The translations under genes were made by a program, and so were the position numbers. 64,000 nucleotides of DNA. Origin: a virus. Its lineage: Duplodnaviria > Caudoviricetes. The stretch's first letter is position 1. Each line of letters begins with the position of its first letter. Below, piece by piece: positions 18,707 through 62,959 of this stretch. The notes below the pieces were generated by a model that was given only the letters and a program-made list of their open reading frames with translations, was not told the origin of the DNA and did no database searches. The stretch lies in the IMG/VR virus record IMGVR_UViG_3300011113_000415. One strand, given 5' to 3'.

Positions 18707-19918
18707 ATGTCAGAACAACTATTAGAAAGTCGCTGGGGCGAAACCAAAGAAGCATTGCTTGAAGGTTTGAACGGTTCCAAGCGCAACTCAATGAGTGTGA
18801 TCCTCGAAAACACTCGCAAGTACTTGAAGGAAAACGCAAGTTCTGGTTCAACAGGCAGTGGCAATATTGCAACATTGAACCGTGTGATTTTGCCAGTGAT
18901 CCGACGTGTAATGCCAACTGTTATTGCTAACGAGTTGGTAGGCGTTCAGCCAATGACAGGTCCAGTTGGTCAAATCCACACTCTGCGTGTGCGTTATGCC
19001 AACTCTATGACTGACAACAGCCCAGCACAAACTAGTGTTGCCGCTGGTCAAGAAGCATTGAGCCCATTCACTATTGCTCAAGCATACTCTTCAGCATCTA
19101 GCGTGACAGCAGGTACTGTTGACTCAACACAAAACATCTACTCTGGTGCTAACACATCAGTTCTAGAAGGTTCTGGTGGTCGTCAAATTAGCGTGCAAAT
19201 CTTGAAGCAGGCTGTTGAAGCCAAGACTCGCAAGTTGCAAGCACGTTGGACATTTGAAGCCGCTCAAGACGCACAAGCAATGCATGGTATCGACGTTGAA
19301 GCCGAAATCATGGCTGCTTTGGCTCAAGAGATCACTGCTGAAATTGACCAAGAGATTCTTTTGAGTCTCCGTAGTTTGGCCGCAACTGAGTACACATACA
19401 ACCAAGCAACCGTTTCAGGTACTGCTACATTCGTTGGTGACGAACATGCCGCATTGGCAGTTTTGATCAACCGTGTTGCTAACTTGATCGCACAACGCAC
19501 ACGTCGTGGCGCAGGTAACTACGCAGTTGTATCTAGTGCAAGTTTGACAGTGTTGCAAAGTGCAACTACTAGTGCATTTGCACGTACTACAGAAGGTACA
19601 TTTGAAGCACCAACAAACACCAAGTTTGTTGGTACACTCAACGGCGCAATGCGTGTGTTCGTTGACTCTTATGCTAGTGACACAACTCCTGTGTTGGTTG
19701 GCTACAAGGGTTCTTCAGAAGCAGACGCTCCAGCATTCTACTGCCCATACATCCCATTGATGTCAAGCGGTGTTGTGTTGGATCCAACAACCTTTGAACC
19801 AGTCGTATCATTTATGACACGTTATGGCTTCATTGAACTCACTAACACTGCCTCTTCATTCGGCAATGCTGGTGACTATGTCGGAGAAATTGCCGTTTCT
19901 AACCTGAGTTTTTCGTGA
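18707..19918 (+). CDS. gp23: Major capsid protein
   Basis: LPVIRRVMP, ELVGVQPMTGPVGQI, VEAKTRKLQARWTFEAAQD, EITAEIDQEI, FYCPYIPL, SFMTRYG. Confidence 0.97.
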   Translation: MSEQLLESRWGETKEALLEGLNGSKRNSMSVILENTRKYLKENASSGSTGSGNIATLNRVILPVIRRVMPTVIANELVGVQPMTGPVGQIHTLRVRYANSMTDNSPAQTSVAAGQEALSPFTIAQAYSSASSVTAGTVDSTQNIYSGANTSVLEGSGGRQISVQILKQAVEAKTRKLQARWTFEAAQDAQAMHGIDVEAEIMAALAQEITAEIDQEILLSLRSLAATEYTYNQATVSGTATFVGDEHAALAVLINRVANLIAQRTRRGAGNYAVVSSASLTVLQSATTSAFARTTEGTFEAPTNTKFVGTLNGAMRVFVDSYASDTTPVLVGYKGSSEADAPAFYCPYIPLMSSGVVLDPTTFEPVVSFMTRYGFIELTNTASSFGNAGDYVGEIAVSNLSFS

Positions 19919-53098: not shown

Positions 53099-53461
53099 AT
53101 GGGCGGTTCAGTTAATTCACCAAATGAAAATAATGATTTAACAGTCAGAATCTTTGACGGCTTCTACAGTTACGAACAGTTTGTGAGTGCAGAAGAATAC
53201 GATGTGGTCTACAGTTATCTCAAGAGTGTGTTCACTACAGATGCGGCAGCAGGTAACTTTGCAGTGGCCCTGTTTAGAATTGCTGATGAAACTCGTACTC
53301 CTGTACTCACAATATTGCAAAGTTTACAAGGTCAAGACGCACTAACGTTGACACAGACCTTGTGTTACTATCTCAACAACATGCGAAGCGGTAGTACGTT
53401 GTTGGGCTTTGGTGCACCTGTAACTCCTAACTATTATACTGCTAGAAATGTCGTGGCATGA
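53099..53461 (+). CDS. Hypothetical protein
   Basis: 120 aa, tightly coupled between the tube paralog and gp4. Confidence 0.7.
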   Translation: MGGSVNSPNENNDLTVRIFDGFYSYEQFVSAEEYDVVYSYLKSVFTTDAAAGNFAVALFRIADETRTPVLTILQSLQGQDALTLTQTLCYYLNNMRSGSTLLGFGAPVTPNYYTARNVVA

Positions 53462-53889
53462 GTCGCTGGGCCAATGGTATATACACCCTGGTGAACCCTG
53501 CCAAGTATGTGGGCAAGGGTGTGCCTAGATACAGATCCGGCTGGGAGCATGCGTTCTTTAAATTCTGTGACTCAAATGACGCTGTGTTACAGTGGGCGTC
53601 GGAAAGCATAGCCATACCCTATCGCAATCCCATCACCGGCAAGCAAAGTCAGTACATACCCGACATACTAATGACCTATCGCACCAGAGGCAACCAAGTG
53701 CGAGCAGAGTTGATAGAAATCAAACCCAAAAAGCAAAGCGTGATCGAATCAAAAATGTCGGCCCGTGACCGTGCTGTGGTTGCTATCAACTATGCCAAGT
53801 GGGACGCCGCAACCAAATGGGCCAAACGAAACGGGCTCCTGTTCCGTGTGATCACCGAAGATCAAATGTTCAAGAACGGTAGCAAATAG
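53458..53889 (+). CDS. gp4: Head completion nuclease (TnsA-like)
   Basis: KYVGK...YRSGWE...FCDSN..VLQWASE...YIPD...IEIKP...NYAKW.AA. Confidence 0.85.
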   Translation: MSRWANGIYTLVNPAKYVGKGVPRYRSGWEHAFFKFCDSNDAVLQWASESIAIPYRNPITGKQSQYIPDILMTYRTRGNQVRAELIEIKPKKQSVIESKMSARDRAVVAINYAKWDAATKWAKRNGLLFRVITEDQMFKNGSK

Positions 53890-54426: not shown

Positions 54427-55035
54427 ATGAAGACATTTCATCAATATCTCGCAGAATCTCAGCGCACATACGACTACAGGATCAAAATCCTAGGTGAAGT
54501 GCCACCTGATTTTGTGAAAAACCTCGAAGAAAAAATGGCACAGTTTGACATTGTCAAAATTTCTCGCCCAAAAACCACACCTGTGCAAAAGTTGCAGAAA
54601 GACTTTCCTGGCGCAGAAAATGAGAGCATGACTTTCATGGATGTGAGTTTTAGATATCCTGCCATTGAACCACAGATCAAACAGTTGGCACAGTTGTTGG
54701 GTTTCAATCCCAACCGAATCACACTGCAAACAGCAGCCTATGATGACAGCATTGCCAAAGAGATTGCTGACATCACAGCACAGAACAAAGACTTGATTGC
54801 TGACACTGATTATCCTGCACCTGATGCAGAACAAAAAGCCTTGAGCCAAGACTACTCAGCCAATCCCTATCAACATGCAGTATTGAAGAATGAATACCGT
54901 TCAGACTTTACTGTGGCCGGCGGCAAGACACCTCCTGCAAAAACCACAAATGATATTCCAACACAGGACAAGAGCCCGTTCAACAATATCAAGCGTCAAC
55001 CCCGCCCAGCAACTGGTGCAACCCCAAGAGGATAA
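54427..55035 (+). CDS. Probable internal head protein
   Basis: N-terminus MKTFHQYLAE closely resembles the T4 internal-protein capsid-targeting sequence MKTYQEFIAE. Confidence 0.6.
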   Translation: MKTFHQYLAESQRTYDYRIKILGEVPPDFVKNLEEKMAQFDIVKISRPKTTPVQKLQKDFPGAENESMTFMDVSFRYPAIEPQIKQLAQLLGFNPNRITLQTAAYDDSIAKEIADITAQNKDLIADTDYPAPDAEQKALSQDYSANPYQHAVLKNEYRSDFTVAGGKTPPAKTTNDIPTQDKSPFNNIKRQPRPATGATPRG

Positions 55036-55039
55036 TACA

Positions 55040-57382
55040 ATGACATTTTTTTACGACTTAAACAAACGCATGGCTGAACTAAGCCAAAAACAAACTCTCA
55101 CCGAAGGCGCAGTTGCTTTATCCAACAAGTGGATCCAAGGTGCTGTTAATCCTGCACACAAAGGTGACCTGCACAAGGCGTTGCATGTGGCTGCTGGTGA
55201 AAAGATTCCTAAGGCCAAGATTAACAAAGCCACTCACAGCAGTGATCCACATCTGCGTCATATGGCACAGTTTGCCAAGAACGTGGCACCCAAACAAGAA
55301 GGTGTGGGAGAAGGCGATACAAGTAGTCCAACAAAAACCACTGGCGGTCGGGCTAACATGCCAACCAGCGACGTAAGGAGCAAATATTATCCTCCTGCAA
55401 AACCGCCAGTCAAGAAGTTTGCCCAGCCAACCACTGCGTTTGATAGAAACAAGACCGGTGGTCTTTCTACAGCGTATGCTCAAGATCAAGCATCACGTCC
55501 AGCAGGTATGAATCCAAGTCCTGAATCGCGTTATAAAATAGGCGAAGAAGGTGGCATTCCAATGACAGCCAAGCAAAAATCATTTGCTGCCTTGGCACCT
55601 CCCAAAGACAAAATTACATTTGCTGACAAGATTGCCGGTGCCAAACAAGAAGTTGAAGAAATGTTGGGCGACGTGGCTGCCGAAGCCATCAAGAGCGCAC
55701 TGACTCCCAAGCAAAAGAAACTTGACCGCAACAACAACGGTAAGTTAGATGCACAAGACTTTGAGATGTTGCGTAAGGGCGCAAAACAAGAAACCGACGA
55801 AGGCTGGGACGAAATGGAACGTGACGTTAAAAAGCGTATGGGTCCAAAGGTTGGTGATGTCCGTCGTGGCGCACGTCATGACATTGAAACCACTGCCACT
55901 GGTGTTCGTGCCACACGTCGTTATGATGACGAAGAAGATGACAATCAACCCACAGGCGAAAAACGCAAGGCTGGCCGTCCCAAAGGCTCACGCAAAGCCA
56001 TGGGAGCCAAAGGTCCCAGCGGCCGGTCAAAGTTGATGACCCGAGAAGATGGTGTGGACATTGTTGATCGTGGTGAATACGATCAAGAAGGAGCCATGGC
56101 CAAAGATGACATCAAGACCATTGTGCGTCATGCTCAAGCCCTGGAAAAAATCCTAGGCGACAACGACAACTTGCCAGAATGGGTGCAGGCCAAGTTGGCC
56201 AAGATCGAAGGCATGATGACTGCTGTGGATGATTACATGCAGAATCAACAAGATGATGATCAAGAGATTGATGAAAAGGCACCTCTAGGTGCCAAGGCTG
56301 AACGCATGGTCAAACATATCAAGGCTGGTTATGCCAAAGATGGCAAATTGACAGATGTTGAAAAGCGCAAAGCCTACGGTGCGGCCTGGAAAGCACACAA
56401 TGCTGGTAAAGTGGAAGAAGAGTCCACAGACAAAGAAGATCAACGTGCTGAACGTGCAGGTCGTAAAGTAGCCAAAGACATTGAGTATGATGAAGGCCAC
56501 AAAGGCAAAGACGATAACCGGGCAGAAAAAGCCGGTAAAAGAGTCACCAAAGACATTGAGTACGATGACAAAAAAGATCGTAAAGAAAAGAAAGTAGATG
56601 AAACTACCACCAGTGGTTCAGTTGCTGCCAGCGATGCCGCTCCTAAAAAGAGCAAGGGCGGCATGCAAATTGGCAAAGGCATCTACGACAGCATGAATCG
56701 TGAATTAGAAAACATGATCTCTGAGTCAATGAGCATCAATGTGTCAATGACCAACGATGACAGCGGCTCACACAAGAACATCACTGTGACAGCAGCCGAT
56801 GAGGATGCAGAAATGTTGGCACAATTGCTGGCACGTGCAGGTTTGACCGGTGGTGCACACGGTCATCAAGAGCCTTGCCCAGACTGCGGATCAACTGATT
56901 GCGGTTGCGACGAAGCAGTTGAAGAAGCCTACGGTGATGTCACTGCCACAGAGAACAAGCCTGATTGGCCTACCGACACTGAATACAGTGACGATGCCCT
57001 GCAATACTCAGGTGGCTTAAACAAGCCCAAGACTGATGTTGCTGGTGACGGACAAACAACAGTTCCTAACACTGCTGTTCACACTCAAGACGAAGATGAA
57101 CTGCGTCGCATGATGGAAATGGCCGGCATTGACCAAAGCAAACTCAAGCCTTGGGAACGCACCATGAAGGAAGAAGAAGCAGTTGAAGAAGGTGTTGTGG
57201 ACACAGTTAAGAGCGTTGTGAAAAAAGGCCTTGAGAAACTGGGTCACGGGTCGGATCAAGACATGCGCAAAGACTTGCAAAAGAAAATGGGTGTGCCACC
57301 AACAGGTCAAAAGCCCGAGCCCAAAGACGACAAAAAGATGCAAGAAAGCCTGATGAAAGAGTTTGCTAACTTTAAGATCTAA
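55040..57382 (+). CDS. Large charged modular protein, probable internal head polyprotein
   Basis: Start moved to ATG 55040 (SD GAGG). Short modules separated by xxE/EE linkers. EF-hand-like loop DRNNNGKLDAQDF at about 55724-55762. Confidence 0.65.
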   Translation: MTFFYDLNKRMAELSQKQTLTEGAVALSNKWIQGAVNPAHKGDLHKALHVAAGEKIPKAKINKATHSSDPHLRHMAQFAKNVAPKQEGVGEGDTSSPTKTTGGRANMPTSDVRSKYYPPAKPPVKKFAQPTTAFDRNKTGGLSTAYAQDQASRPAGMNPSPESRYKIGEEGGIPMTAKQKSFAALAPPKDKITFADKIAGAKQEVEEMLGDVAAEAIKSALTPKQKKLDRNNNGKLDAQDFEMLRKGAKQETDEGWDEMERDVKKRMGPKVGDVRRGARHDIETTATGVRATRRYDDEEDDNQPTGEKRKAGRPKGSRKAMGAKGPSGRSKLMTREDGVDIVDRGEYDQEGAMAKDDIKTIVRHAQALEKILGDNDNLPEWVQAKLAKIEGMMTAVDDYMQNQQDDDQEIDEKAPLGAKAERMVKHIKAGYAKDGKLTDVEKRKAYGAAWKAHNAGKVEEESTDKEDQRAERAGRKVAKDIEYDEGHKGKDDNRAEKAGKRVTKDIEYDDKKDRKEKKVDETTTSGSVAASDAAPKKSKGGMQIGKGIYDSMNRELENMISESMSINVSMTNDDSGSHKNITVTAADEDAEMLAQLLARAGLTGGAHGHQEPCPDCGSTDCGCDEAVEEAYGDVTATENKPDWPTDTEYSDDALQYSGGLNKPKTDVAGDGQTTVPNTAVHTQDEDELRRMMEMAGIDQSKLKPWERTMKEEEAVEEGVVDTVKSVVKKGLEKLGHGSDQDMRKDLQKKMGVPPTGQKPEPKDDKKMQESLMKEFANFKI

Positions 57383-57383
57383 T

Positions 57384-57563
57384 ATGACACAACAGTATCA
57401 AACCTACGCAGAAACAATGTCACGCTTGGCGGAAAGACACCCGCCAGCACCCACACCTGCAGAGGTGCGCAATCAACCTGCAATGATACCCGGCGTGTTA
57501 AGCCAGACCACAAATCTGTTTCGCCCAGTGGCAGTGGCAGATCTCAATAAGGAATTAAAATAA
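57384..57563 (+). CDS. Small hypothetical protein
   Basis: MTQQYQTYAETMSRL..., 59 aa, TAATG overlap with the next gene. Confidence 0.55.
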   Translation: MTQQYQTYAETMSRLAERHPPAPTPAEVRNQPAMIPGVLSQTTNLFRPVAVADLNKELK

Positions 57564-57886
57564 TGGCTATTCAAGTCGTCAACGCAGTATCAAATGTGGC
57601 CTGGACCACAGACAAGGTAGAAATTGCTACCACAACCGCCAACGTGACTTTTCAAGTTTCAGTTGTACAATTGACCTATGTACAAGCAAATGGTGTTCCT
57701 GCAAACGCTACAATGACCACACCCACCGGCAATCTATATGCTAACGTTATAGTGGTCCCTGGCAACACAGTGCAACAATACTATGTTGGTGCAGGAAACT
57801 ATTTGAACATTGTGACAGGCACTGGCTTCTCGGCCACAGCACTAGGCGCAGCCTCATCAGCCACGGCAGGTTCAAACGGCATCTAA
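57563..57886 (+). CDS. Small beta-rich virion protein
   Basis: 107 aa, Thr/Val/Asn-rich, SD AAGGA. Confidence 0.65.
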   Translation: MAIQVVNAVSNVAWTTDKVEIATTTANVTFQVSVVQLTYVQANGVPANATMTTPTGNLYANVIVVPGNTVQQYYVGAGNYLNIVTGTGFSATALGAASSATAGSNGI

Positions 57887-57887
57887 C

Positions 57888-58274
57888 ATGCGAGCCCGTG
57901 AGTTCATAACCGAAGGCGCTGGCAAGCGTGGCGGAACAAGAGCCGCCGCCAGCCACGAGTTTGAAACTGCACATCCTGGTATAGTAGGGCCTGGTGGCAA
58001 GGGAGACGTGTATTGGGGCCGTTATTACGATCATTATCGTGTGGCAACATTGGCCGGTATGGATCTGGAACAATTAGAAAACTCAAGCGACATAAACTTC
58101 TTTGGAAACTTGCCCATCTTCAGTGCCTACACTGAACACGATCGCAAGAAACTCACAGCAATTATGAAAAAATTGGGCATGAAGCCCCGAGATTCTATCA
58201 GTAACGGCAGTCATGAACCTGACTACGTGAATCACACAAGCCCAGTCACAGCATTCAAAGGTTATGCGAGATAA
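57888..58274 (+). CDS. MRAREF...FKGYxR paralog 1
   Basis: MRAREFITE ... YDHYR ... YTEHD ... SHEPDYVNHTSPVTAFKGYAR. Confidence 0.8.
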   Translation: MRAREFITEGAGKRGGTRAAASHEFETAHPGIVGPGGKGDVYWGRYYDHYRVATLAGMDLEQLENSSDINFFGNLPIFSAYTEHDRKKLTAIMKKLGMKPRDSISNGSHEPDYVNHTSPVTAFKGYAR

Positions 58275-58276
58275 CC

Positions 58277-59155
58277 ATGTGTGTAATACTTGCCAAATAC
58301 TTTGATGGTATTGGATGGGCCGGCGCCAAAAATCGCGATCGCAACTACACCCCTGTGCTAGACTTCATTGAAGACAACAGTCAAGACGTGCAACGCATGA
58401 TGATGCATGATCAAGTCACAGGCTACAAAGAAGGCATCAACAATCATGGCATCAGTATCCTGAACACCAGTTTGGATGTTTATGATGATGAAAGTGAAGT
58501 TGAAGCCGGCACAGCAGAAATCAGTCCTGACGGGCAAGTGATTGCCAAGGCTCTGTTACAACACACAGTGCCCGATGCTGTTCAAGTGTTATTAGACGGA
58601 AAACTGGGTGGTTGCACCATTGTGTTTGACCGGGAACAACTGTATCTAATAGAAGCCAGCGACTGGGATGGCACACGTGAATTCAAATCGATTGTGAAAG
58701 AGATTCCAAACACAGACACAGTGGCCAGAACCAACCATGGCATTTGGATGCAGGACACAGGATACCAACGCAGACCCAACAATCGGAGTGAAACACTCAG
58801 TAGAATTTCAAGTGAATCAAGACTTGCACTAGCCGAAGCAGTGGTGGCCACAGCCGAAGAACCTGAGGATTTAGTGGACGGTATGTGTCAAGTATACTTG
58901 AAGAATCCGCAACTAAATATAATGCGGACCAGCACAGAGCAAAAGAAAATGCGCACCACTAGTCAGCAGTTATGTGTTCCAGAAGAAAAGACACTGTATT
59001 GCCGTCCTGTTAGCAGTCATTTGCAATTTGATTTCTGGGGCTTGAATCAACCCAACACTGATGTATGGGTAGAGATCCTAAGCAACCGCGCACTGTGGCA
59101 GAATACACAAGGTGATCCTCCTTTTGGACACATGAAACTAAAAGACGTCAAATGA
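58277..59155 (+). CDS. Ntn-hydrolase fold protein (N-terminal Cys nucleophile; NRDE/C45/C69-like)
   Basis: MCVILAK...GAKNRDRNY, EGINNHGISI, VARTNHG. Confidence 0.7.
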   Translation: MCVILAKYFDGIGWAGAKNRDRNYTPVLDFIEDNSQDVQRMMMHDQVTGYKEGINNHGISILNTSLDVYDDESEVEAGTAEISPDGQVIAKALLQHTVPDAVQVLLDGKLGGCTIVFDREQLYLIEASDWDGTREFKSIVKEIPNTDTVARTNHGIWMQDTGYQRRPNNRSETLSRISSESRLALAEAVVATAEEPEDLVDGMCQVYLKNPQLNIMRTSTEQKKMRTTSQQLCVPEEKTLYCRPVSSHLQFDFWGLNQPNTDVWVEILSNRALWQNTQGDPPFGHMKLKDVK

Positions 59156-59550
59156 GAGCAAGAGAATTTGTAGCAGAAGCAAGATTTGGATCAGCCCAAG
59201 ACGTTCCTGCTGACGCAAAGAAATTACCCAAAAGCCACGCTAGTGCCATCAAGGGTGCTATCAGCATGCCCGACATATCAATGACCAAACAAGGTGGTAA
59301 TCCCTACACACAATGGCGTTTTAGTCTGGCCATGGCCGGAGCACCAGATTTCCCCACACCAGCCGCTGGCGCATTTGCTGGCGACCCGCTGTTGGCAACT
59401 TACACAGACGTCGAAATGGACATCATCAACGCCGCTGCCAAGAGTGTGGGGGCTGGAAGAGTTAACAAACTAACTGACAATCGCAGTCGAGAAGCAGACT
59501 ATGTGCAAAAAACAAGTCCAGTAAAAGGATTCAAAGGATATCCCAGATGA
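59152..59550 (+). CDS. MRAREF...FKGYxR paralog 2
   Basis: MRAREFVAE ... YTQWR ... YTDVE ... SREADYVQKTSPVKGFKGYPR. Confidence 0.8.
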   Translation: MRAREFVAEARFGSAQDVPADAKKLPKSHASAIKGAISMPDISMTKQGGNPYTQWRFSLAMAGAPDFPTPAAGAFAGDPLLATYTDVEMDIINAAAKSVGAGRVNKLTDNRSREADYVQKTSPVKGFKGYPR

Positions 59551-59918
59551 GAGCCAGAGAATTCTTAAAAGAACACGATGGTAACATCAGCGATGATTTT
59601 CGTTATCCCACAGTAGGTCTAAACACCTTTGGTGACGGCGAGCACATCAGTGGAGATTATACATCATACAGACTCATGATGGCCACTGCCATGGCTGACG
59701 GCACCAACAAGCCACTGGATCTTGATGCCAAAAGTTGGTACGGCAAAAGAAAAACAGCACACCCTTACACTCAAGCGGAACAAAACATGTTGAAGCAGGC
59801 TTATAAAGCAGTGGGCGCAGAGTGGCAAGATCTAAATCATGGCGACTTGGAGAGCCAAGAACCACCAGGTGGCAATGCCAAAAGCCCTATCGAACCATTT
59901 AAAGGGTATCTCAGATGA
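59547..59918 (+). CDS. MRAREF...FKGYxR paralog 3
   Basis: MRAREFLKE ... YTSYR ... YTQAE ... SQEPPGGNAKSPIEPFKGYLR. Confidence 0.8.
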   Translation: MRAREFLKEHDGNISDDFRYPTVGLNTFGDGEHISGDYTSYRLMMATAMADGTNKPLDLDAKSWYGKRKTAHPYTQAEQNMLKQAYKAVGAEWQDLNHGDLESQEPPGGNAKSPIEPFKGYLR

Positions 59919-60301
59919 GAGCCAAAGAGTTTATTACAGAAGATCAACATTTGCCTCCTGAGCAAGCAGATCCCATGAATCATGTGTTTGTGTTGCCTGG
60001 AGTTAAATCTTCAGATCCATATCAAATATATCGATTGGGTGTGGCCATGGCCCGAGCACGTAGTGATGCTGGCACACAAGATCCAATCCCCTACATGCCC
60101 ACTTGGAGTGCTCAAGCCGCATTTGGTGAAGAAGCAGTGATTGCTGGATTCAATGGTAATGTAGCGCCGGTGATTGATCAAGCATTGAAAATGGCAGGAT
60201 TATCAGGTGGCAAAGTACAAGTTAGCACACCAAACAGCCTTGAGCCTGCTTCTGTAGATACAACCAGTCCAGTGCGCGGATTCAAAGGGTACCCAAGGTA
60301 A
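59915..60301 (+). CDS. MRAREF...FKGYxR paralog 4
   Basis: MRAKEFITE ... YQIYR ... SLEPASVDTTSPVRGFKGYPR. Confidence 0.8.
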   Translation: MRAKEFITEDQHLPPEQADPMNHVFVLPGVKSSDPYQIYRLGVAMARARSDAGTQDPIPYMPTWSAQAAFGEEAVIAGFNGNVAPVIDQALKMAGLSGGKVQVSTPNSLEPASVDTTSPVRGFKGYPR

Positions 60302-60310: not shown

Positions 60311-60691
60311 ATGAAAATTGCTGAACTATTAAGAAACCTAGCCGACGTAATTGATCAAAGCGTACAAAGTGAACATCAATCAACGGCAGAAATTAGTTCA
60401 AGTGAAGGCGATCTTGCGCCGCAACGGTTTGTTCCACCGCTACAACTAAAACTGGAATTGCTGAAACGAGCAGTAGATGTCAACAACATCTACTCGCCCG
60501 ACGTTCCTGATCAAGATGGCAATGTACCACCGCATCAGGTCAGTCTAAGCCAAGGTGACAACAATCCAGCAACAGCACAAGAACAAGGCCGAATAGAGTC
60601 TCAAGGCCAAGATGATGTTAACCAACTTCGTCGTAGAATAGCGGCGCTTTTACATGTTGATGGCGGCAGTGACGATCCTATAGACAACTAG
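60311..60691 (+). CDS. Hypothetical protein
   Basis: MKIAELLRNLAD...FVPPLQLKLELLKR, late promoter. Confidence 0.7.
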   Translation: MKIAELLRNLADVIDQSVQSEHQSTAEISSSEGDLAPQRFVPPLQLKLELLKRAVDVNNIYSPDVPDQDGNVPPHQVSLSQGDNNPATAQEQGRIESQGQDDVNQLRRRIAALLHVDGGSDDPIDN

Positions 60692-60701
60692 GAGTTGGTT
60701 A

Positions 60702-62108
60702 GTGACCACTGCTAACATTCCAAACGATCCTGTAGCAATACAAAAACTCTACACCAGTAGAGATAACTATGCAAATGCCAGCACCTTTGTAGGTGAAGTA
60801 CAACGGCTTTGGTATAATCCTATAACCAATTGTTTTTATGTTTCAGACGGCAATACTCCCGGCGGTATTGCTGTGGGCTGTTGTGGCAATGCCGCTTCTG
60901 GATCCGCTATTTCTGTATCAGATGAAGGCACAGTTATAACAGCCAACGTCGGTAGTTTCAATTTTACCGGAGGCTGGGTCACAGCCACTGCCAGTGGAAA
61001 TGATGTCACAGTATCCATACCCACACAAAGTTATATCATAAACGGCAACAGTTGGGCCAATATCAATACCACTGATGGTAATTTAATAATAAACATCAAT
61101 AACAATCAGTGGACATTTGACACTACAGGTAATTTGAGTGCCCCGGGCAATATCAGCGCAGTAGGAAACATACAAGGCGATTGGTTGATTGCCTCAAACG
61201 GTAACACCATAATTGATACTGGAGTCAGCACCACTGGAAACGTCACCGGAGGAAATCTTGTCACTGTTGGTAATATCAGTGCCACTGGCAATGTGTATGG
61301 AAATTATGGCGTATTCTCAGGTGGTAATACTGTAATTAACAGCACAATCAGCACCACAGGCAATATCATTGGCAATAACATTAGTGCTATTGGTAATGTG
61401 TATGCCAACAACATCATTGGCAATACAACTTATAATGGTGGATCCTATGGTGCTTTTCATACCAATTATCAAACCGCCCTTGATGGCGGCATAAATTCAA
61501 ACTCAACAGCACCTATTGCGGTGACCAGCACAGCAGGATGGCCCACCAGTGGAGCGTTGTTGATTGATGAAGAAGTTATTGCCTACACTGGTATTACTGG
61601 TAATACATTTACAGGTATCACCCGTGACGTAGCAGGATCCAATGGTGCAACTCACGCCAGTGGGGCCGCAGTAAGTTTTGCACAAGTTGCCGCGGCCAAC
61701 ACCCCAACTACCATGGTGATAGATCAAACTGATCTCAGCAATGGAGTAACCGTAAATGCTTCGCATGAAGTTATTATAGCAAATGCCGGAGTTTATAATT
61801 GTCAATTTAGTGTGCAAACAGCCTGTGCTGACAATGCACCAGATGATATTGTTGTATGGTTTGTGGTTGATGGCACCGCAGTTCCATCCTCAGCCAGTTA
61901 TGTGACCACACAACAAATACATGCCGGTCACCTTGGTGCCGCAATCATGACAGTAAACATATTTTATCAGTTCACAGCAGGACAACGACTCACACTAAAA
62001 TGGGCAACCCTGGCTGGTACCAGTGTAATCACTTCATATCCATCTGTGGCAAGCCCGGTAATTCCAGCATCACCATCTGTGATTGTTACCGTTAATCAAG
62101 TGGGCTAA
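60702..62108 (+). CDS. Fibre/decoration-like virion protein
   Basis: GTG start with GGAG SD. RLWYNP...FYVSDGNTPGG N-terminal module, GN repeats, C-terminal YGAFH...GVYNCQFSVQ beta-sandwich-like domain. Confidence 0.65.
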   Translation: MTTANIPNDPVAIQKLYTSRDNYANASTFVGEVQRLWYNPITNCFYVSDGNTPGGIAVGCCGNAASGSAISVSDEGTVITANVGSFNFTGGWVTATASGNDVTVSIPTQSYIINGNSWANINTTDGNLIININNNQWTFDTTGNLSAPGNISAVGNIQGDWLIASNGNTIIDTGVSTTGNVTGGNLVTVGNISATGNVYGNYGVFSGGNTVINSTISTTGNIIGNNISAIGNVYANNIIGNTTYNGGSYGAFHTNYQTALDGGINSNSTAPIAVTSTAGWPTSGALLIDEEVIAYTGITGNTFTGITRDVAGSNGATHASGAAVSFAQVAAANTPTTMVIDQTDLSNGVTVNASHEVIIANAGVYNCQFSVQTACADNAPDDIVVWFVVDGTAVPSSASYVTTQQIHAGHLGAAIMTVNIFYQFTAGQRLTLKWATLAGTSVITSYPSVASPVIPASPSVIVTVNQVG

Positions 62109-62134: not shown

Positions 62135-62959
62135 ATGAAACGAATTCTTGCCCTTGTGGTTTTGGCTGTGAGTCTCTCGGCTCAAGCATGGGATCAACGT
62201 GCTCCTAATCCCCCACAAACCTGTGCAGTTCACTCGCCTTGGGGTTGGGCACAAACAGCCAGAACAGCCACACCCATCTGTAGAGAAGCCTACTTTGTGG
62301 CCTATGACGCTCCGGTAAAGATTCCTGTGTACGTGGCCTACACACTACTGCCACAAAACGCCTTGGGCTGTTTCCCACGTACCAATGCCTTTGTTGCTGA
62401 TGCCAGTTTGAATGGCACAGGTGCTAGACCCGATGACTATGCTGGTACAGGCTATGACAAGGGGCATGCCGTGCCTGACGGTGATTTATCATGGAGCCAA
62501 CAGGTGGAATATGAATCATTCTTGATGACCAACATGTATCCACAACACGGAAGTTTGAATCGTGGCATTTGGAAATTGTTAGAAACATCAGTACGTGGTT
62601 GGGCAGTGCAACGCAACCAAACCTACACTATCTACGTTGGTGCTATCTACGGAGCAGGTGATCCCACAATCGGCAATGGTGTGATTGTGCCACGTGGCTA
62701 CTACAAGATTGTGGTGAATCAACAGACCAACGAAACAGCCGGCTGGTTGTTCCCACACACCAAACCCTATGTTAATCTGGGCAACGATTTGACCAAGTTT
62801 CGTGCGCCCATTGCTCAAATTCAAGAGTATGCTGGTGTTAGATACGCACTACCACCAGGTGTGCGTGAACTAGCACCTGGAACAGAATGGCCTGTGGACT
62901 TTGGAAAATTAACTCAAATGAAACGCCAAAAATGTGGAGCCAGTGCCAGTGCAGACTGA
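62135..62959 (+). CDS. DNA/RNA non-specific endonuclease (NucA/EndA type) with signal peptide
   Basis: MKRILALVVLAVSLSAQA signal peptide. YDKGHAVP (DRGH-type), MTNMYPQ...LNRGIWK.LE, VPRGYYKI. Confidence 0.88.
   Translation: MKRILALVVLAVSLSAQAWDQRAPNPPQTCAVHSPWGWAQTARTATPICREAYFVAYDAPVKIPVYVAYTLLPQNALGCFPRTNAFVADASLNGTGARPDDYAGTGYDKGHAVPDGDLSWSQQVEYESFLMTNMYPQHGSLNRGIWKLLETSVRGWAVQRNQTYTIYVGAIYGAGDPTIGNGVIVPRGYYKIVVNQQTNETAGWLFPHTKPYVNLGNDLTKFRAPIAQIQEYAGVRYALPPGVRELAPGTEWPVDFGKLTQMKRQKCGASASAD

Follow-up and report, generated by a model that had tools for sequence, protein, structure and literature searches.

The 64,000-nucleotide stretch of viral DNA analysed here (Duplodnaviria; Caudoviricetes; IMG/VR record IMGVR_UViG_3300011113_000415), hereafter the window, contains an array of five genes at positions 57888 to 60301. 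Four of these genes, copies 1 to 4, encode small paralogous proteins with a common N-terminal leader and a common C-terminal tail, and the fifth, which is embedded between copies 1 and 2, encodes a predicted N-terminal nucleophile hydrolase with a cysteine behind its initiator methionine (Cys-Ntn hydrolase). On present evidence, the array is a conserved family of the structural module and not a new defence or counter-defence principle. The genes of the array are as follows:

57888..58274, plus strand: copy 1, 128 amino acids (aa), MRAREFITE...FKGYAR; an accessory subfamily found only alongside the hydrolase
58277..59155, plus strand: predicted Cys-Ntn hydrolase, Peptidase C45/AAT-like, 292 aa, starting with MC; between copies 1 and 2
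59152..59550, plus strand: copy 2, 132 aa, MRAREFVAE...FKGYPR; the subfamily most constantly found 3' of the hydrolase
59547..59918, plus strand: copy 3, 123 aa, MRAREFLKE...FKGYLR; one of the two copies kept in hydrolase-less relatives
59915..60301, plus strand: copy 4, 128 aa, MRAKEFITE...FKGYPR; the subfamily with the widest distribution and the strongest conservation

The open reading frames (ORFs) and their alignment confirm the four paralogues with shared N- and C-terminal motifs that the initial annotation, made from the sequence alone, had reported at these positions. All four follow the pattern MRA[RK]EF[IVL]xE...SP[VI]xxFKGYxR, and in a full-length alignment the other copies are 29-31% identical to copy 1. 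Specifically, M1, R2, A3, E5, F6, E9, Y47, R51, S108, E110, S118, P119, F123, K124, G125, Y126 and R128 are invariant in the four-copy alignment. A degenerate DNA pattern for MRA[RK]EF matches four times in the window against 0.01 matches expected, and all four are the copy starts. Because the codons of this motif vary synonymously among the copies (CGA/AGA, CGT/AGA, GAG/GAA, TTC/TTT), its conservation acts at the protein level. The translational coupling or 2-nt spacing of the genes described in the same annotation also holds at every junction: copy 1 and the hydrolase are separated by a 2-nt gap (TAA-CC-ATG, as read in the sequence), and the three remaining junctions, from the hydrolase through to copy 4, are ATGA overlaps. 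Near-identical DNA blocks lie at 59530-59563 (copy 2/3 junction) and 59898-59931 (copy 3/4 junction) and consist of the FKGYxR-stop and MRAREF codons; recombination handles need not be invoked for them, since the conserved C-terminal and N-terminal codons account for the similarity. Across the 53.8-63.2 kb region, neither scans for sigma-70 promoters and terminators nor the T4 late-promoter word TATAAATA rose above chance.

The family comprises 5060 metagenomic proteins at E<0.01, which fall into 496 clusters at 50% identity; about ten main subfamilies emerge from this clustering and are combined into many array types. Among 102 diverse members, M1, R2, E5, E9, Y36, R40, S108, E110, S118 and P119 are at least 90% conserved, residue 7 is I, V, L or M in the N-termini listed, and the C-terminus is F-x-G-Y followed by 0-3 residues, or KKNKYGV. 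No Pfam or PHROGs model matches any of the four copies or the hydrolase, profile searches against PDB sequences gave nothing meaningful for either, and blastn against 50,697 phage records found no DNA match. In relatives of the window, the gene order is constant: head closure, a gene of ~165 aa, a gene of ~202 aa (MKxFxxYLxE), a large charged protein, an optional extra gene, a gene of ~100 aa, 1-5 family members, accessory genes and the large terminase (TerL). Every relative inspected carries at least one copy (range 1-5; five in L010) at this fixed place between the ~100-aa gene and the TerL region. In the distant relatives L005-L008, the array consists of just two genes, which are orthologous to copies 3 and 4, and the hydrolase is absent, whereas the clade of the window has the arrangement copy 1, hydrolase, copy 2, copy 3, copy 4. 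The family belongs to the core, with variation confined to how many subfamilies are present and in what combination; the lineage of the window has an expanded array, in which a cassette of copy 1, hydrolase and copy 2 is added to the core pair of copies 3 and 4.

Each copy of the window has its own orthologue group at >76% identity, with orthologues 77-94% identical. In distant relatives, copy 4 retains 77-83% identity where TerL retains 76-84%, the sheath protein 59-60% and the tube protein 63-71%. In addition, pairwise ratios of nonsynonymous to synonymous substitution (dN/dS) range from 0.03 to 0.14 for the four copies and the hydrolase, the same range as for the neighbouring structural genes. 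The orthologue identity and the low dN/dS together indicate that the genes are real, functional and conserved.

The leaders MRAREFITE (copy 1), MRAREFVAE (copy 2), MRAREFLKE (copy 3) and MRAKEFITE (copy 4) end in ITE, VAE, LKE and ITE, which fit the (I/L/V)-x-E motif of T4-type prohead proteases. In phage T4, every internal head protein joins the prohead core through a capsid-targeting sequence (CTS), and the gp21 protease cuts after Glu; Alt is cleaved at ITE-6 and LTE-619, and in IPIII targeting depends on residues 4 and 7 and processing on residues 8 and 10 (PMC5694885, PMC9026906). The CTS of IPI, IPII, IPIII and Alt is reviewed in PMC3012670, PMC9026906 and PMC5694885. The T4 genome (NC_000866) holds MKTYQEFIAE twice, on IPII and IPIII, and the N-terminus of Alt, MELITE, ends in the same ITE as the leaders of copies 1 and 4. 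The window itself is the structural module of a large myovirus, with T4-type head genes and a further protein that has a leader-like start:

13969-15747: portal protein, Portal_T4, PF07230 (E 8e-102)
16926..17573, plus strand: T4 gp21-type prohead serine protease, Peptidase_S77, PF03420 (E 8.4e-25); the presumed cutter after the leader Glu
18707-19918: Gp23-type capsid protein, PF07068 (E 2e-97)
54427..55035, plus strand: 202-aa protein with the start MKTFHQYLAE, which comes nearest to the T4 CTS MKTYQEFIAE

The window also encodes a sheath protein, a tube protein, a gp4-like head-closure protein and a T4-type large terminase; by TerL, the cultured phages closest to it are Pseudomonas phage PA5oct (52%), Sinorhizobium phage Phosso, Agrobacterium phage Atu_ph07 and Rak2-like phages. 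In the capsid protein, LLE, LLE, ILE and LKE precede the Gp23 domain, LKE being the last candidate site, and a 366-aa gene between the protease and the capsid gene has 26 [ILV]xE sites, as expected of a gp22-like scaffold. The array belongs to a late block of co-directional, translationally coupled genes, with the neck/head genes on one side and the terminase on the other.

In relatives, a leader-like start of the form M[KR]xx[ED][FYIL][ILV]xE recurs in the same module on at least five non-homologous families, which include the 202-aa family, a family of 172-433 aa ending in RYWSCRAW, proteins of 290, 323 and 397 aa, and a 97-aa protein. PA5oct gp282, annotated as a structural protein detected by mass spectrometry, is a homologue of the first 80 aa of the 202-aa protein, and this is the sole indirect pointer to the virion. 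Because the leader ends in (I/L/V)-x-E, the phage has T4-type head and protease genes, and similar leaders stand on unrelated proteins, the leader is plausibly a capsid-targeting, cleaved propeptide, by analogy with T4. The resemblance of the N-termini to the T4 CTS, to which the initial annotation had drawn attention, is upheld by the same three observations.

Beyond the leader, copy 4 was modelled with AlphaFold2 (AF2) at a mean predicted local distance difference test score (pLDDT) of 90 and a predicted template modelling score (pTM) of 0.63, as two main helices with long ordered loops. Fold searches with this model against the PDB (Foldseek), BFVD, VIA-align wide, ESM Atlas and AFDB clusters returned noise (best Z 2.7; template modelling score (TM) <=0.33), and an Atlas feature search gave no usable match. 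In longer metagenomic proteins of 330-760 aa (P0257, P0258, P0261, P0294, P0308, P0311, P0367, and also at L093 and L094), the family domain forms the C-terminal module behind cytidylyltransferase-like (HxGH) or Zeta-toxin/AAA_33 kinase-like domains. These fusions start with MKLRQLFEN or MKTNDVLNE, and their family domain is immediately preceded by [LIVF]xE or even by an internal MRAREFxxE; the family match itself often begins at profile position 10-14, that is, without the leader. Two further proteins, P0270 and P0271, have two family domains each, and the neighbours at L094 include a carbamoyltransferase gene, a gene with a weak ubiquitin-like match and a CTP_transf_like gene of its own.

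The embedded hydrolase begins MCVILAK...KNRDR. Its residues C2, N19-R20-D21, N153-H154 and R226 do not vary among 45 homologues with identities as low as 45%. Presumed removal of Met1 would expose Cys2 as the nucleophile. N19-R20-D21, N153-H154 and R226 may be the equivalents of R18, D21, N175 and R228 of bile salt hydrolase. The hydrolase has 998 homologues, all metagenomic or viral, a few of which are tagged PF03417, and its language-model neighbours carry AAT, CBAH or TANGO2 domains. Its AF2 model (pLDDT 63, pTM 0.70; the C-terminal third is poor) matches only Cys-Ntn hydrolases in the PDB, namely PVA, BSH, NAAA, IAT and TANGO2 (E 4e-5 to 1e-3), in agreement with the class originally assigned, and among AFDB clusters its best match is one of Peptidase C45 hydrolase-domain type (E 6.6e-15, TM 0.66). 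The Pfam AAT model PF03417 gives E 0.012 and 15.8 bits, below its gathering score of 23.2 bits, so that the hydrolase is a distant clan relative and not a curated PF03417 member; the same model is weak in 18 of the 45 homologues (best 4e-5). Like Peptidase C45/AAT (PF03417), penicillin V acylase, bile salt hydrolase, NAAA and TANGO2/NRDE proteins, the hydrolase has Cys after the initiator Met, NRD ~18 residues on and a four-layer alpha-beta-beta-alpha Ntn fold in its model; unlike them, it is sub-threshold in Pfam, belongs to a phage-only clade of ~1000 proteins and is embedded in a virion gene block. Judged from sequence and model, it is probably an active, distant C45-like Cys-Ntn amidase of a phage-specific clade. 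In a blast search of the 50,697 phage records, its only matches were in Chryseobacterium phages MA9V-1/2. The MA9V-1 homologue (L011) lies at 152544-153368 amid hypothetical genes of a cultured 213-kb phage with no detectable family member. At 4986-6590 of L075, a 518-kb contig, a hydrolase homologue without the family immediately precedes a gene that begins ...LLFGDSFADKNS and, by eye, resembles GDSL/SGNH enzymes.

The linkage of hydrolase and family was followed from both sides, in a hydrolase-anchored set of 80 viral contigs, in which the family was counted if within 5 kb, and in a family-anchored set of 79 loci found with the four-copy alignment. The initial annotation had asked whether the two co-occur in relatives, and they are linked: the family lies within 5 kb, usually adjacent, in ~66 of the 80 hydrolase-anchored loci, which are partly redundant. 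The orders vary (F-H-F-F-F, H-F-F, F-F-H-F and F-F-F-F-H, where F is a family gene and H the hydrolase), and hydrolases at 46-48% identity often lie elsewhere, beside unrelated genes. From the other side, 50 of the 79 family-anchored loci, mostly with 1-2 copies, have no hydrolase, whereas the loci with a hydrolase mostly have 3-4 copies. Copy-1-like genes occur in 55 loci with a hydrolase and in none without, and copy-2-like genes in 68 versus 1; copy-3-like and copy-4-like genes occur with or without it. A predicted complex of the hydrolase and copy 2, built with custom alignments, scored 0.00 with a partner pLDDT of 36-40, which speaks neither for nor against binding. The original proposal that the hydrolase processes the family is not supported: maturation of the whole family does not require the hydrolase, because 50 of 79 loci and all two-copy relatives are without it, and the hydrolase also occurs in phages that have no family member. 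Thus, the hydrolase is an accessory gene whose inheritance follows that of the copy-1 and copy-2 subfamilies, and the family at large does not depend on it.

We propose, with a probability of roughly 0.55, that the four genes represent a conserved, leader-tagged internal-head or prohead-core family of T4-type uncultured jumbo myoviruses. In this model, the proteins would be made late with the nine-residue leader M-R-A-x-E-F-(I/V/L)-x-E, which would direct them into the assembling prohead core as the T4 CTS does. Cleavage behind Glu9 by the gp21-type S77 protease would then strip off the leader and yield a mature protein of ~13 kDa within the head. The model has the hydrolase expressed together with the array and inherited along with the subfamilies of copies 1 and 2. 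Given purifying selection on the orthologues and the presence of one copy or more in every relative, a constant role in head assembly, DNA packing or ejection is more likely than a host-specific anti-defence role.

Several points weigh against this model. Virion membership and cleavage of the family are deduced from gene sequence and analogy, and the specificity of the S77 protease of the window is likewise carried over from T4. With nine residues, the leader falls one short of the T4 CTS, and its counterpart of T4 Tyr4 is not aromatic. In the AF2 model of copy 4 the leader is modelled at pLDDT 78 and could be part of the fold. PA5oct gp282, the homologue of the 202-aa protein, has no Glu at the supposed site, and leader-like starts therefore need not be cleaved. 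The model also leaves the invariant C-terminal SxE...SPVxxFKGY motif without explanation. A tblastn search of the 50,697 phage records detected no family member in cultured phages: copy 4 matched nothing, and the matches of copy 3 stayed at chance level. Finally, the linkage counts overstate the number of independent events, as the loci are related.

With the T4 internal proteins, for which Mullaney and Black (1996) is reportedly the source on the CTS, the family shares a short (I/L)-x-E leader (MKTYQEFIAE and MELITE in T4, MRA[RK]EF leaders here), a phage that encodes a gp21-type S77 protease, gp23 and gp20, and small tandem genes in which the leader is common to otherwise dissimilar proteins. 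It differs from them in that the leader has 9 residues rather than 10, a strictly conserved C-terminal motif is present, and the mature parts have no sequence or fold similarity; the family profile finds nothing in the T4 record. Since T4 internal proteins are not defined by homology, this absence mainly excludes orthology. In addition, T4 internal proteins are poorly conserved between T-even phages, whereas the family here is conserved, with 1-5 copies per relative under purifying selection. As a proposed prohead-core family, it also resembles T4 gp67 and gp68, small conserved prohead-core proteins of T4-type assembly that are processed by gp21. The genes for gp67 and gp68 lie between portal and protease, whereas the array is ~40 kb away beside the terminase region, and homology of the family to gp68 was rejected (hhalign probability 0.8%). 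At the T4 67/68 position of the window, between the portal gene and a 274-aa acidic gene, there is an ORF of ~72 codons (about 15755-15973, plus strand; MILNEIYE start) with LNE and IYE near its start. A further parallel is provided by gp53 and gp54 of the phiKZ-like phage SPN3US, head paralogues with identical N-terminal propeptides and a divergent remainder, in which the prohead protease cuts after Glu (PMC5694885). The constancy of the propeptide beside a diverging remainder and, as a prediction for the family here, a cut after Glu are common to both systems; SPN3US belongs to another phage lineage, has an S80 protease with an A/S/G-x-E motif, and its proteins have no sequence relation to the family.

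The initial annotation had read the paralogues as a diversifying set of packaged, injected effectors, possibly anti-defence proteins like T4 IPI*, each directed at a different host system. The CTS-like leader, paralogue cores that are only ~30% identical, and differences among related phages in copy number (1-5) and subfamily composition are all compatible with this reading, as is the fusion to nucleotidyltransferase-like and Zeta-toxin/AAA_33 kinase-like domains, a feature of polyvalent injected proteins. We nevertheless consider it unlikely, given that each copy belongs to an orthologue group at >76% identity, that copy 4 is conserved about as well as TerL and better than the sheath (77-83% versus 59-60%), that dN/dS (0.03-0.14) does not exceed that of the structural neighbours, and that 1-5 copies, never fewer than one, occupy the same place in every relative inspected. 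Moreover, Y36, R40, S108, E110, S118 and P119 are kept family-wide, and these residues of the mature part point to one shared activity or partner rather than many targets. As to the fixed copy number with a purely structural fold that this annotation had named as speaking against effectors, the copy number varies, and the model of copy 4 matches no known fold. It is less probable again that the family is not a virion component and consists of late cytoplasmic factors, the N-terminus either belonging to the fold or serving as a signal for something other than capsid targeting. That the virion placement is argued by analogy, that the N-terminus is modelled at fair confidence (pLDDT 78), and that the predicted mature forms have isoelectric points from 4.5 to 10 and are not uniformly basic like T4 internal proteins would all suit such factors. 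A single fold hardly explains, however, why the leader pattern stands on unrelated proteins, and both the position of the genes in the coupled late block between neck/head genes and terminase and the fusions whose family domain starts at profile position 10-14, without the leader, also speak against this reading.

Two readings give the hydrolase a direct part. In one, which we rate as low as the effector reading, hydrolase and family form a functional pair, and the enzyme trims or deconjugates the copy-1 and copy-2 types, for instance at the C-terminal tail, or acts on their ligand. The array contains or adjoins the hydrolase in ~66 of 80 hydrolase-anchored loci, in several gene orders; this, the near-exclusive occurrence of copy-1-like (55 versus 0 loci) and copy-2-like genes (68 versus 1) with the hydrolase, and the ATGA overlap that joins hydrolase and copy 2 are in line with such a pairing. 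On the other hand, 50 of 79 family-anchored loci do without the enzyme, hydrolases at 46-48% identity often stand beside unrelated genes, MA9V-1 has the hydrolase and no detectable family member, and known members of the clan mostly cut small-molecule amides. The pre-TerL stretch also gathers other accessory genes (a secreted nuclease, SNase, radical SAM), so that co-location may reflect a plastic region and common descent. The most speculative reading, and the one we hold least probable, treats the family domain as a general cargo or anchoring module, common to a huge clade of uncultured jumbo phages, that would load itself and fused enzymes (nucleotidyltransferases, Zeta-like kinases) into the capsid via the T4-like leader, and in expanded arrays the hydrolase would mature the copy-1 and copy-2 types at SxE...SPVxxFKGY; this would amount to a two-enzyme maturation system without a T4 counterpart.

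If the leader of the proposed internal-head family works as in T4, capsid targeting by a short cleavable tag would reach far beyond the T-even phages into abundant, wholly uncultured freshwater jumbo phages, and a simple sequence rule would become available for predicting packaged proteins among the unknowns of those phages. Additionally, a family of ~5000 members that has no Pfam or PHROG model and a confident predicted fold without known relative is a good target for structural and functional work, and the C45-like hydrolase clade, which is confined to phages and has ~1000 proteins, also awaits characterisation.

The genes that flank the array in the window are as follows:

53458-53889, plus strand: head-closure protein, phrog_218, which also matches the TnsA-like endonuclease N-terminal domain PF08722 (1e-18), a match kept in all relatives
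54890-57382, plus strand: large charged protein, whose 830-aa ORF reading overlaps the end of the 202-aa gene
57563..57886, plus strand: 107-aa gene, directly 5' of the array in all relatives inspected (96-163 aa there)
60311..60691, plus strand: 126-aa acidic protein, MKIAELLRN..., 3' of the array here and in several relatives
60702-62108, plus strand: 468-aa protein with a conserved N-terminus (…QKLYTSRDNYANASTFVGE…) followed by many GN(I/V)xxxGN repeats
62135-62959, plus strand: DNA/RNA non-specific endonuclease, PF01223 (2e-38), just upstream of TerL, with an N-terminus that by eye resembles a signal peptide

The real large charged protein is probably 780 aa long, since its relatives start at the equivalent of 55040 (MTFFYDLNK...). 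In this form (55040-57382) it has no significant similarity to PA5oct gp281, and the two are positional counterparts only; the protein of the window ends in FKI, and its relatives end in FKG or YKG, as does PA5oct gp281. The 468-aa protein, for which no family match was found, has counterparts of 482 to 948 aa in relatives and may be fibre-like. Some relatives have SNase-like or radical SAM genes in the stretch before TerL, which therefore looks like a plastic accessory region.

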